Source of the DNA: a bacterium | GTDB lineage: Bacteria; SAR324; NAC60-12 | DNA length: 64,000 nucleotides | Direction of reading: 5' to 3' | Assembly: GCA_965205865.1 (NCBI GenBank) | Contig: CBDBHR010000027.1 | Location: 32,001 to 96,000 of the forward strand | In this document: in pieces, positions 15,785 through 34,410 of the stretch | Position numbering within the stretch: position 1 is the first letter of the stretch | How the letters are laid out: each line of letters starts with the position of its first letter | The notes under the pieces: generated by a model | Databases searched by the model: none | Seen by the model: only the letters and a program-made list of their open reading frames with translations | What the model was told of the DNA's origin: nothing | Program-made: the position numbers and the translations under genes

Positions 15785-16572
15785 AAGGGGGTCAGGCCTT
15801 TGATTAAATGAAAAGGGAGCAAAAAAACTATACTCGTTCCTAATCAAATAATCAAAGTCACCGTAAAGAACTGACTTATAGTGGTTTCCAGCCACCTTTC
15901 GTCATTCCTCCGGTACAGATCCGGATGTGCGCTGCTAACGCATCCGGCTCCTGCTTCGAGTCAGACGCTCAAACGTTGATTCGGATTCGCCGTTTGGCGC
16001 ACCCTGCTTAAACCGCTCTCTGATTTTACCGGCCTCTGAGTTCCGAACACAGCAGGGCAAGCAGAATTCCTCTCAGCCAAGTCCCTTTGCTCCACAGGCT
16101 CCGTTGATTTCCTTTGCATTGTTACTCTCTACAAATGATCTCATTGTTCGCCGCTTCATAGCTACTACGAACTTGTCCGACTTCCTGAAGACGTAGATAT
16201 CGGGGTTATTTATTAATTTTCCCGATCCGACTACCAATGGAATGGTGACAGTCATCCTCAGGATCTCCCAGGTTCCGATCAAGAAACTTCCACACATGCA
16301 CAGGGTCTTTGACTCCGCCAGGCTCAGCCGAGACTCACGCTAACGCCTTCGGTTGATATTGCCTTCCCCACCAGACCACAAGGTCAGCGCATGAGACTAT
16401 GATTTCGGAGCTCAATACCGAGCCTATGTTCTCCCCTGTCAACGCTTAGCGCCTATCCTTGCGGATAACCACTCATGACTCGGGGACTCGGCGGGTCGTT
16501 ACTGCCTTACCGAGTAAGAGACTTTCACTCTCTATTTCTTGCCAGCTTTCCTGGCGCACGGCCTGACCCCTT
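15785..16572. mobile_element. 88-bp miniature inverted-repeat element (copy 1), interrupted by a group II intron
   Basis: 15785-15856 plus 16560-16572 reconstitute a near-identical copy of the element at 18733-18820. Confidence 0.9.
15857..16559 (-). ncRNA. ORF-less group II intron (703 nt)
   Basis: 5' GTGCG at 16559, 3' end ..TTTACGGTGAC at 15857 with an A at -8, domain V GAGCCGGATGCGTTAGCAGCGCACATCCGGATCT (15917-15950); precise removal restores the host repeat. Confidence 0.93.
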
Positions 16573-16642
16573 TTTGACTCTCTCCATAGTTAAAATATAT
16601 TCTTTTAGGAATGAAATTTAAATAAGTTAGAAGTATGGATAC

Positions 16643-16723
16643 GCAAAATTAGGGGACACGTAACAGCAGGCATAAAACAGTAGAGTTGGGATGCGCAGCG
16701 GTGTACATGTTCCCCAATTTTGC
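16643..16723. repeat. REP-like inverted repeat pair
   Basis: gcaaaattaggggacacgta ... tacatgttccccaattttgc (17/20 complementary). Confidence 0.65.
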
Positions 16724-16809
16724 TCACTCCATTAGAAGATTTACAGGTTATTTAAGTTTTGTTCCTTAATTAATACGCGGCACCGGTTTGGCACCGCGCG
16801 ATAGTGTAC

Positions 16810-17991: not shown

Positions 17992-18732
17992 ATGAAAAAC
18001 AAACGTAGCGCAAGATCGGCAAGAACGACAGCAAAAAATATCCATATCAGCCAGGGAGGCAGAGACCTTACCGCGCAAGCAGGCTTGATTCCGGTTGTCA
18101 AATTTTTTCACAAAGAAGGGATTGTTTCAAAGACAGAGCAGACCGTAGATCATCAGCGTGGCGCCACGGGTCTCTATGACGCGGTGGACATGATCATTTT
18201 GTCGTTGGTCGGCATTGTTGGCGGCGCCCGTTCGATTCGTTCGATTGTGACAGTTTGGAACGACCGTGTTTTGAGTCGTGCGGCCGGTTGGCTGAGGATT
18301 CCGGATGAAAGCACATTCGGCCGGATACTGCGTACTTTCACACAGAAAAACATCAATGAGATGGAGAGCTTGAACCATCGGATTCGAGTCGGTATCTGGC
18401 GCAAGGCGCTTCGAAGTGGGACAAGCATTGTTGGGGTGTTACCCTGTCTTGTGATTGACGTGGACTCCACTATGAAAACGGCCTACGGCAAGCAGCAAGG
18501 AGTGTCTGTCGGATATAATCCCCACAAACGCGGTGCAGCTTCGTATCATCCTCTGCTGGCATTTTGTGCAGAGACAAAGGAGATTCTTCAGGGTTGGCTT
18601 CGTGATGGGAGTGCCTATACCAGCAATGGAGTCGTTGATCCCCATTGCCATGAGGACTAGATTCATGCGGTAACTTCTCGCTCATCTTCCAAATCGGACT
18701 CGCACTCTGTTTCGTGGAGACAGTGGTTTTTT
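17992..18732 (+). pseudogene. IS1380-family transposase remnant
   Basis: LTAQAGL, IPDESTFGR, IDVDST..YGKQQG..GYNP.KRG..SYHPLLAF, later FRGDSGFF; small insertion and stops near 18640-18672; truncated by the 88-bp element. Confidence 0.85.
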
Positions 18733-18820
18733 AAAGGGGGTCAGGCCTTTGATTAAATGAAAAGGGGGCAAAAAAACTGGACTCGTTCCTAATCAAATAA
18801 TCAAAGGCCTGACCCCCTTT
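18733..18820. mobile_element. 88-bp miniature inverted-repeat element (copy 2, intact)
   Basis: 23-bp perfect TIR aaagggggtcaggcctttgatta / taatcaaaggcctgacccccttt. Confidence 0.92.
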
Positions 18821-31749: not shown

Positions 31750-32220
31750 TTATCCTGCATTGACCTTTTGACATTCAGCCAGAAGATCTTCTGATTTGCG
31801 AATTCCACCAGGCGTGACTGAATTGGCATAACGCACGATACCTTGTTTGTCAATTATCACGGTGGCCCGGTCCGCGATCCCATTGTCATCTAAATACAGT
31901 CCGTAACTTTCCGTCATTGCGCCTTTGGGATGAAAATCGGCGAGCAACGGAAATGAAATCCCGCCCAAGGAAGTTGCCCAGTTCTCATGGCAAAATCGAC
32001 TGTCTATACTAACACCCAGAACTTGAGTGTCCGCCGCCTTGAAATCACTGAGTCGTGATTCGATATCCGGCATTTCCTTGCTTCACGTGCCTGTCCAATC
32101 CAGTGGATAGAAGGCCAACAATACATTTTTTTCTCCTTTGAATTGGCTCAGGGAGTATTCTTTTCCTCCCAAGTGACTTGCCAATGTAAAATCAGGGGCT
32201 TGAGCGCCTACTTCAATCAT
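31750..32220 (-). CDS. Selenocysteine-containing peroxiredoxin (AhpC/TSA family)
   Basis: MIEVGAQAPDFTL..VLLAFYPLDWTGT-TGA(32083-32085)-SKEMP..VLGVSIDS..LLADF..RATVIIDKQG; TGA falls at the peroxidatic Cys position. Confidence 0.9.
32041..32064 (-). promoter_or_regulatory. Candidate bacterial SECIS hairpin
   Basis: GAATCAC-GACTCA-GTGATTT stem-loop; loop starts with G, 28 nt after the UGA. Confidence 0.65.
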
Positions 32221-34321: not shown

Positions 34322-34410
34322 AGTCCCGGAGGGACGAAAGGGAATAGCCCAGCGATTCATCGCTGGGAAAAGAAACCCCCTCCTCCTCAGCTAGTCCCAG
34401 AGGGACGACA
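34322..34410. repeat. REP-like palindrome cluster
   Basis: gtcccggagggac, cccagcgattcatcgctggg and gtcccagagggac hairpins. Confidence 0.65.

Follow-up and report, generated by a model that had tools for sequence, protein, structure and literature searches.

An ORF-deleted group II intron in the terminal-repeat tip of an IS200-like element, and the probable spread of its family by homing in a SAR324 genome

We here analysed a window of 64,000 nucleotides from a bacterium of the SAR324 lineage (positions 32,001 to 96,000 of contig CBDBHR010000027.1, here C27, in assembly GCA_965205865.1), in which a 703-nt group II intron lacking an intact open reading frame (ORF) interrupts a small inverted-repeat element on the minus strand, at 16559..15857. 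It is highly probable that this intron belongs to a proliferating, endonuclease-less group II family that homes into the tips of transposons, within which it is a non-autonomous member with a deleted ORF. This reading is carried by the identity of the intron, by its relation to an ORF-bearing parent still present in the genome, by the identity and abundance of the target, by covariation between exon-binding site 1 (EBS1) of the intron and intron-binding site 1 (IBS1) of the exon, and by the spread of the deletion lineage over unrelated element families. The genome is a draft assembly of 4.74 Mb in 30 contigs, with 91.9% completeness and 3.7% contamination.

The intron, its parent and the deletion lineage

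The intron boundaries could be read directly from the sequence, with the minus-strand 5' exon AAAAAGGGGTCAGGCC followed by the intron start GTGCGCCAGG, and with the intron end CTTTACGGTGAC followed by the 3' exon TTTGATTATTTGATTAGG. The resulting termini, GUGCG and GGUGAC, agree with the group II pattern of 5' GUGYG and 3' AY, and were found in 20 of the 21 complete copies that were aligned, the remaining one beginning with AUGCG. The Rfam model RF02005 (group-II-D1D4-6; gathering score 49) matched the domain I core at 16525..16303 with 162.8 bits (E 4.5e-47), covering model positions 1–225 of 225. Domains V and VI occupy the final 96 nt (15952..15857), where the domain V helix, which begins with GAGC and has its AGC and 2-nt bulge, aligned well in a match to RF00029 that stayed below the gathering score, and where domain VI contains an insertion of ~37 nt and, in the minimum free energy (MFE) fold, a bulged A located 8 nt from the 3' end. 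The initial annotation, made from the sequence of the window by itself, had proposed a 703-nt minus-strand intron beginning with GTGCG, and that proposal was borne out. It had also pointed to the peptides LSRVRQ.. and PNQRLSV* as remnants of a coding sequence joined near 15985. These are indeed real, forming a domain IV remnant at 16119..15961 that comprises a start codon (16119–16117), ~44 N-terminal codons and the last 7 codons plus stop, ending at 15961, with the deletion junction at ~15986–15989. Comparison with the parent thus showed that no reverse transcriptase (RT)/maturase is encoded by this copy beyond those ~44 N-terminal and 7 C-terminal codons. As the start codon and ~44 codons have been kept, the protein-binding part of domain IV may well be retained in the ORF-less form.

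Using the window intron and a full-length sibling as BLASTN queries, we found 41 distinct 5' and 36 distinct 3' intron junctions in the genome, these counts being derived from BLAST pieces and including fragments as well as nested copies. The parent form is an intron of 1957 nt with a 470-aa ORF in domain IV, its full-length representatives reading GLSRVRQRAKRTPH and ending with YPNQRLSV*. The encoded protein matched TIGR04416 (group II RT/maturase) over residues 63–434 with 344 bits (cut-off 300), had RVT_1 as its sole Pfam domain and contained a YADD motif. Four copies with open ORFs, all having GGTCTG as EBS1, scored above the TIGR04416 cut-off (340–345 bits), and an RT-encoding sibling with the EBS1 of the window copy, which the initial annotation had suggested looking for, hence exists four times over. 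Neither Pfam nor TIGR04416 revealed any endonuclease domain in the 470-aa protein, which possesses neither a DNA-binding nor an H-N-H endonuclease domain, as is the case for the endonuclease-minus proteins of classes C, D, E and F. A sequence search of the PDB gave the RT of a class C (IIC) intron as the best solved relative (7uim, E 7.5e-45), with PDB sequence matches and Rfam names being measures that do not map onto the intron classes (A–F, CL, ML).

The genome holds 16 complete ORF-less copies, with 13 of 689–692 nt, two of 703 nt including the window copy and one of 702 nt. By BLASTN the window copy was 97–100% identical to the other 15, and in the alignment its overall identity to its siblings was 96–98%. 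At the deletion junction all 16 ORF-less copies read GCGCCAAACGGC and all five ORF-bearing copies read GCGCCAAAGGGC, so that a C found in every member of the former group contrasts with a G in every member of the latter. The junctions are furthermore nested, from 703 through 702 to 692 nt, with the 692-nt form lacking 11 further bases of the 703-nt form. This common junction variant together with the nesting of the junctions argues for a single ORF-less lineage, and the simplest history suggested by the sequences is that of one deletion, followed by spread and by small further deletions, i.e. the same conclusion as that drawn for the introns of Thermosynechococcus elongatus by Mohr et al. (excerpts of PMC2882425). 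The loss of the ORF and the non-autonomous state of the window copy, both of which had been proposed initially, are thereby traced to an internal deletion of a 1957-nt parent.

Nested and tandem arrangements were also seen in this family. An ORF-less insert of ~903 nt (or 833 nt) that starts with GTGCGC lies at position 396/397 of the intron family at two loci (L068:615-1517, corresponding to G000:C28:326614-327516, and G000:C30:654282-655114; G000 denotes the present genome), and with 44.2 bits for RF00029 at its 3' end, above the gathering score of 40, it is a further group II intron lying inside the first one, the two forming a twintron. Another insert of ~908 nt, starting with GTGAGC and having boundaries ambiguous by one base, lies at intron position 400 in at least four copies (L030:1901-2808, corresponding to G000:C30:1206302-1207209, and C28:263297-264204, C29:627308-628215 and C30:788635-789543). 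It gave a weak RF02003 match (33.2 bits against a gathering score of 49, E 1.8e-5) and has a domain V-like hairpin near its end, and probably constitutes a third group II intron, divergent and likewise ORF-less. At L002 (G000:C26:239010-240179) a 703-nt copy is followed head-to-tail by a truncated and more divergent one, such that the second copy has the 3' end of the first as its ‘5' exon’. Beyond this family, the genome has intact group II intron RT genes of at least two others, namely L070 (G000:C30:878712-879815), with an RF02005-type domain I (105.8 bits), and L071, found in three copies (C15:7385-8410, C25:24347-25372 and C26:166135-167160) with an RF02001/RF01998-type domain I. In L070, the second RF02005-type intron of the genome, EBS1 and IBS1 could not be placed.

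The transposon tip as target, and its recognition

When the intron was excised by script, the remaining exon parts (72 + 13 nt in the given bounds) agreed at 82 of 88 positions with an intact, intron-free 88-bp element found at 18733..18820 (+), confirming the proposal that removal of the intron restores this element. The 5' exon is the outer tip of the inverted repeat (AAGGGGTCAGGCC, 16560..16572, −), the final six bases of which, CAGGCC (16560..16565, −), constitute IBS1, and the 3' exon is the remainder of the host element (15785..15856, −), having T at position +1. As single-stranded DNA the intact element would fold into a hairpin with a 23-bp stem (−28.8 kcal/mol, z −7.4), and the insertion point lies inside its 5' arm, 11–12 nt from the hairpin base. 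The motif GGGTCAGGCY occurs four times in the window, at 15789 (+; the other arm of the same element, 15789..15798), 16560 (−, occupied), 18738 (+) and 18806 (−), with 0.17 occurrences expected from shuffles and none of 100 shuffles reaching four. The three empty identical sites of the initial annotation are therefore the arm at 15789 and both ends of the intact copy.

Genome-wide, GGGGTCAGGCY was found 138 times (both strands), to be compared with ~4.5 expected according to our own calculation for 4.74 Mb, and ~24 of these sites carry an intron directly after the motif, leaving ~114 empty. Comparing the 41 5' exons with this 11-mer gave 23 exact matches, eight with one mismatch and six with two, hence 37 of 41 junctions within two mismatches; the other four had 3, 4, 4 and 9, the last being the tandem intron–intron joint. 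The G-run at −11..−8 was conserved in 30–39 of the 41 junctions and positions −16 to −13 were A-rich, with −7 being the least conserved position within the motif, and variant target sites still read GGG-N-CAGGCY. Downstream, position +1 was T in 30 of 36 3' junctions. The initial annotation had suggested that a dispersed repeat serves as a multi-copy target and that finding other copies at unrelated targets would speak against this; the other copies were instead found at the same target.

The element itself had initially been taken as a tiny inverted-repeat element in its own right. That it is an inverted-repeat element was upheld, but rather than a stand-alone miniature inverted-repeat transposable element it appears as a miniature derivative of larger IS200-like Y1 (RAYT-like) elements. 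The motif forms inverted pairs that bound elements of 50–88 bp, ~365 bp, 1046 bp and 1204 bp (full span 50–2035 bp). The two largest of these size classes, 1046 and 1204 bp, encode proteins of 312 and 328 aa, respectively (open frames of ~334 aa), with Pfam matches to Y1_Tnp of 53.8 and 46.8 bits (cut-off 23) and a C-terminal DnaA-type helix-turn-helix (Bac_DnaA_C). The NCBIfam RAYT model NF047646 matched the Y1 transposase from end to end with 71.1 bits, which is under its cut-off of 80. Ten Y1 ORFs of at least 250 aa occur in the genome, making these multi-copy genes unlike typical RAYTs, which are single-copy. Since the ~365-bp elements retain the first and last portions of the Y1 ORF, the short elements are read as deletion derivatives of Y1 transposase elements, and the target is, as judged from these comparisons of sequence, the outer inverted-repeat tip of several IS200-like Y1 (RAYT-like) transposase families and of their miniatures. 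The element families are alike at the repeat tip only and diverge immediately inside it. The intron always reads from the repeat tip inwards, and its 3' exons belong to at least five element families, with 26 of 36 matching a family that was also seen at empty sites. Several otherwise unrelated families are hit because the intron recognises only the common 11–12-nt tip, and as this tip is common to several element families and their miniatures, the genome thereby offers more than 100 harmless landing sites.

Recognition of this tip through EBS1 had been proposed from a GGUCUG motif in a domain I-like loop. This motif, at 16377..16372 (−; intron positions 183–188; loop GUGGUCUGG(U)), falls within a hairpin loop of 9–10 nt in the Rfam consensus structure, so that the comparative structure upholds its placement. 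For covariation analysis, the region from exon position −15 to the loop was aligned for the window copy and 13 relatives having canonical or near-canonical 5' ends (13 distinct rows), drawn from 28 RF02005 loci, with 5' ends of AAGCG/UAGCG type, where the register is uncertain, and loci lacking a 5' exon being left out. Pairing of the loop hexamer with exon positions −6..−1 was found in 76 of 78 cells (97.4%) over the 13 distinct introns, with five of the six pairs changing on both sides. The mean for shuffles was 71.4% paired (0 of 500 as high) and the value fell to 33–42% when the partner was slid by 1–3 columns, while the covariation score was 0.79 compared with 0.26 in shuffles (0 of 500 as high). 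Examples of loop/exon hexamer pairs include TGAGCG/CGCTCA, TTAACG/CGTTAA, TGGGTG/CACCCA and TGTCTG/CAGGCA. A function of GGUCUG as EBS1, pairing over 6 bp with the IBS1 CAGGCY, is thus supported by sequence covariation. Among the copies in the genome, 21 have GGTCTG as EBS1 and 10 have AGTCTG. A CCCC/GGGG combination in domain I, considered as a candidate EBS2, turned out to be a real helix, with compensatory CCUC/GAGG in L037, and was hence rejected as EBS2.

A few further observations concern the elements and their surroundings. In the window, a terminator-like hairpin with a T-run (18707–18732) ends the plus-strand ORF at 17992–18660 and is directly followed by the intact 88-bp element, and these elements may prefer positions just after terminators. 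At G000:C29:722037-746000, five 1046-bp Y1 elements of 98–100% identity lie within ~25 kb, with three being empty, one carrying an ORF-less intron and one an ORF-bearing intron at the same end. A separate repeat of ~165 bp at 16604–16768, ~32 nt from the intron-bearing element, is present in ~60–68 genome copies according to BLASTN, shows very high depth in sequencing runs and contains an imperfect inverted repeat (GGGGAACATGTA ... TACGTGTCCCC). Elsewhere in the window, an Acido-Lenti-1 RNA (RF01687) was found at 34322–34367 (−) with 55.9 bits (gathering score 37), and L033, a locus from an Acidobacteriaceae metagenome-assembled genome (MAG), also has an Acido-Lenti-1 RNA near its intron.

Proposed cycle and alternative explanations

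Group II introns home via EBS–IBS pairing, and ORF-less introns need an intron-encoded protein in trans. For the present family, transcription of the intron RNA would begin outside and pass through the host element's tip, and splicing would be helped by the RT/maturase produced from the full-length 1957-nt siblings. The intron RNA would then reverse splice into DNA bearing GGGGTCAGGCY^T, with the cut point set by the 6-bp pairing of IBS1 (CAGGCY) with EBS1, which is GGUCUG or, in part of the copies, AGUCUG, and with the first base of the 3' exon presumably read by an A acting as EBS3. As the protein has no endonuclease domain, synthesis of cDNA would presumably be primed by a nascent DNA strand at the replication fork. 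The mechanistic background for the splicing, reverse-splicing and priming steps is given in excerpts of PMC12584367 and PMC4424553. Insertion 11–12 nt from the tip would probably cripple that end of the host element.

Several results weigh against this reading. The RF00029 match over 15952..15857 had only 26.7 bits (E 0.006), under the gathering score of 40. The window copy carries 7–8 private substitutions in its 703 nt, one of which, a G to U change at intron position 169 (window 16391), disrupts a base pair of domain I that 19 of 21 copies preserve; with these changes, this particular copy may be decaying. The initial annotation had further named placement of GGUCUG outside the EBS1 loop by folding as a possible refutation, and both the MFE and the centroid folds of the single sequence do pair GGUC (183–186) locally with GACC (175–178) just upstream. 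We gave this less weight than the covariation because such a complement was not seen in two relatives checked by eye (L045 and L050). The association between the first base of EBS1 and exon position −1 (A/T 7, A/C 2, G/T 12, G/C 10) was a trend only (Fisher p 0.42). For the conserved GGGG, not one of the 5-nt registers in 12 introns provided a partner as EBS2, with the best register pairing in 75% of cells and overlapping IBS1, and inspection by eye of the 11–13-nt bulge before the EBS1 hairpin and of the GACCC of the first hairpin likewise left the G-run with no consistent partner. A part of the copies arose by segmental duplication and not by independent insertion. Finally, no splice joint across the intron was seen in contigs from four sequencing runs, three of them metatranscriptomes, and the ratio of intron to flank depth was about equal in the RNA runs and in a probable DNA run.

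The segmental duplicates raise the question of whether the intron could have entered only once, with its copies then multiplied by transposition or duplication of host elements and segments instead of by retrohoming. The copies at C28:358767 and C29:409363 have identical 45-nt 5' flanks, three copies in the relative genome G001 lie within 11 kb and have a common 30-nt 5' flank, and the five nearly identical 1046-bp Y1 elements noted above are confined to a single 25-kb stretch of C29. Such passive spread must nonetheless be regarded as hardly credible as the explanation for the family. The same deletion lineage is found in at least five element families with unrelated interiors, its 3' exons reading TTTGATTA, TGCAAGTTTG/TGAAAGTTTG, TGCATAYTKG, TCGYTA and TGYGASTTTG; the near-identical 1046-bp family is itself mixed, with some members having an ORF-less intron, one an ORF-bearing intron and three being empty; ~114 sites are empty; and an insertion 11–12 nt from the tip, which splits the terminus from its repeat, should hinder transposition of the host. 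It is the presence of a single deletion lineage in five or more unrelated element families that leads us to infer spread of the ORF-less copies by retrohoming in trans.

Recognition of a DNA hairpin, instead of mainly of sequence, would be a different way to reach the same elements, as for class C introns. The long hairpin into which the element folds, the missing EBS2, the protein's closest solved relative being a IIC intron RT and its lack of an endonuclease domain, as in IIC proteins, would all fit with that mode of targeting. We still consider it very unlikely, as the intron lies within the 5' stem arm and not just downstream of a stem-loop, 1-kb elements are also hit even though their arms are ~1 kb apart, variant sites preserve the sequence of the motif, and the 6-nt IBS1 covaries fully with EBS1, as compared with the 3–4-nt pairing generally given for IIC introns, in part in excerpts of PMC12584367. 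Sequence-directed homing of the family is, on the other hand, compatible with the notion that the window copy by itself is an inactive fossil of a family that is or was mobile, a view that we find rather unlikely although it deserves more weight than the other two. In its favour are the private substitutions and the disrupted helix described above, the three unoccupied sites of the window, and the 703-nt form being rarer and apparently older (two copies plus one of 702 nt, versus 13 of 689–692 nt). However, a 6-bp helix with a single mismatch may still allow folding, the window copy shows no deviation from the family majority at either splice site, in EBS1, in domain V or at the bulged A of domain VI, and the overall identity to siblings remains high.

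Relatives in other genomes and comparison with known systems

A scan of contigs with the 470-aa protein yielded 37 loci, with RF02005 present in 28. The closest protein, having 82% identity, came from a record labelled ‘Deltaproteobacteria bacterium TL4’. In G001, a complete MAG chromosome that is the genome of locus L058, three ORF-less copies of 698 nt (C1:1099026-1109907) are 90% identical to the window copy and lie at GGGGGTCTGGCT^T with AGCCTG as EBS1, i.e. a matching EBS1 variant at the same kind of site, and a decayed Y1-like gene begins ~70 nt downstream of the intron in sense orientation. The cognate protein gene in G001 is a C-terminal fragment only (C1:1983339-1983926; 86% identity, residues 275–470), and the ORF-less copies of that genome may therefore be stranded without helper protein. 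It was also seen that many of the related RF02005-type introns start with AAGCG, UAGCG, GAGCG or AUGCG rather than GUGCG, possibly through 1–2 extra bases (L035, L036, L038, L042, L043, L047, L052, L054 and L059–L061), making the register of their 5' exons uncertain.

In a quick maximum likelihood tree of 28 proteins, the introns with a 5' exon composed of an A-run, a G-run, A/T and C-A-N-N-C-N formed a clade of 11 rows (SH-aLRT 96), which contains the window protein, TL4 and gammaproteobacterial rows and has L061 beside it; target labels in the tree were assigned from exon sequences, with the 5' exon of L032 being deduced from its downstream partner instead of observed. L035, from a Planctomycetaceae MAG, has a similar target and is placed outside the clade. 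Records of clade members are assigned to Deltaproteobacteria, Desulfobacteraceae, Endozoicomonas, Psychrobium, Thiodiazotropha, Spongiibacteraceae and a Gammaproteobacteria MAG. Inverted partners of the 5' exon were found downstream of the intron in L035, L044, L045, L052 and L058, and by eye in L032 and L034. Y1-like ORFs just downstream in sense orientation were found in L063 (Pfam Y1_Tnp 31.1 bits) and in L039 (NF047646 E 2.5e-9, below the cut-off of that model), along with an N-terminal Y1-type fragment noted by eye in L062, and downstream sense ORFs in L045 and L052 were detected as Y1-like only with a custom hidden Markov model (E 7e-5 and 7e-4, respectively).

In the present genome, remnants of Y1-like coding sequence lie no more than 1.3 kb from 9 of the 36 intron 3' ends, with seven in sense and two in antisense orientation; all four of the full or nearly full Y1 ORFs (289–335 aa) are sense, as is a fifth gene that is in two pieces (C23:178698). 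A preference of both elements for the lagging-strand template could account for this bias towards the sense-upstream position. As a proxy, raw GC-skew placed the intron sense strand on the G-rich strand in 29 of 39 cases (p 0.003), but after masking of the G-rich intron copies the figures became 24 of 39 (p 0.20) or 25 of 37 (p 0.047), and when clusters within 40 kb were counted once they were 14 versus 12, or 15 versus 10, which is not significant.

We tentatively raise the possibility that the whole endonuclease-less intron clade has the outer end tips of Y1 (RAYT/IS200-like) transposons as its specialised target. In that case EBS1 would have been adapted, host by host, to whichever repeat variant is present (CAGGCY, CAGGCA, CACCCA or CAGGCG), with the upstream A-run and G-run kept, and the intron would prefer the end located upstream of the transposase gene, in sense orientation. 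Speaking against such a clade-wide specialisation, Pfam found no Y1 domain in the downstream ORFs of L039, L045, L052 and L062, and genome-wide searches showed that most intron copies in the genomes of five relatives do not lie beside a detectable Y1 gene, with clear adjacency in one of three copies in G003, one of four in G004 (a second one, L062, only through its fragment) and, using the NCBIfam model, none of one in G005 and none of four in G006. It also rests on few independent loci, with several of the Y1 matches being weak. The association at the gene level is accordingly partial and the inverted-repeat context more general, such that the Y1 link at the level of the clade is suggestive and not established.

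Parts of what is described here have precedents, which we take from excerpts of the sources cited. The closest of these is T. elongatus, where the introns TeI3/TeI4 have many ORF-less copies that go back to one domain IV deletion and keep N- and C-terminal ORF remnants, their mobilisation by the proteins of ORF-bearing siblings was shown experimentally, twintrons occur, and family F4 lies at a conserved site in ISEL1, an element of the IS200 family (PMC2882425). The present genome is thus similar in having a one-deletion ORF-less lineage, ORF remnants, ORF-bearing siblings in the same genome, twintrons and an IS200-type target; hence ORF-less proliferation in trans, twintrons and the use of an IS200-family target were already known. 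It differs in its RNA class, being here of the Rfam D1D4-6 type, and in its protein, as those of T. elongatus have DNA-binding and endonuclease domains and the one studied here has neither. There, moreover, six families use different targets, whereas here 37 of 41 junctions keep one 11–12-nt terminal-repeat tip, common to several element families, in near-exclusive use, and mobility was determined by experiment in T. elongatus while here it is deduced from comparing sequences.

The association of introns with multi-copy or palindromic DNA is likewise well documented. Class C introns are endonuclease-less and use intergenic palindromic multi-copy DNA such as terminators and attC sites with little harm to the host (excerpts of PMC4424553 and PMC12584367), but they insert after a stem-loop using a very short IBS1, and the window intron, found within a stem arm with a 6-nt covarying IBS1 and a conserved G-run, does not follow that pattern of insertion just downstream of a stem-loop with an IBS1 of 3–4 nt. 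In Pseudomonas putida, repetitive extragenic palindromic (REP) sequences serve as landing sites for mobile elements, including two of nine copies of a group II intron (excerpts of PMC1525189), an association of 22% that is not tied to EBS–IBS pairing, compared with ~90% of junctions here and a target defined by base pairing. Location of bacterial introns inside insertion sequences or other mobile DNA is the rule (excerpts of PMC12584367), and a higher intron count is on record, with 57 in a Thiomargarita genome (excerpts of PMC4853749). In searches of open-access papers we found no description of an intron lineage targeted to RAYT/REP-type termini.

Another endonuclease-less intron, RmInt1 of Sinorhizobium meliloti, reportedly has its natural homing site in the multi-copy insertion sequence ISRm2011-2 and probably uses replication-fork strands as primers. 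RmInt1 is said to be ORF-bearing and to insert within the transposase gene of a single insertion sequence of the DDE type, unlike the introns described here, most copies of which are ORF-less and the target of which is the terminal-repeat tip of Y1 (HUH) elements and their miniatures. What is possibly new is a clade of introns that uses this type of target across phyla, often just upstream of a Y1 gene, and in the present genome one mobile element clearly lives on another, a situation for which there are precedents.

With T. elongatus, as the single well-studied instance of intron proliferation (excerpts of PMC2882425), being in our reading the main bacterial model for the genome-wide spread of introns and their dependence on a common splicing protein, the genome studied here offers a second, independent case, which involves a different class of intron, an endonuclease-less protein, an unusually clean target rule and more than 100 empty sites. 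It also illustrates parasitism between mobile elements, where an intron in the terminal repeat of a transposon probably disables that end. Should the clade-wide link to Y1/RAYT-like elements hold true, it would represent a fourth, heritable target strategy, in addition to the homing sites, terminators and attC sites listed for bacterial introns in excerpts of PMC4424553, and the EBS1/target pairs of the clade would be natural material for following the evolution of retargeting. The link could then reflect a coupling of two elements through their common dependence on the single-stranded DNA of replication forks or, alternatively, a gating of transposase expression by the intron.

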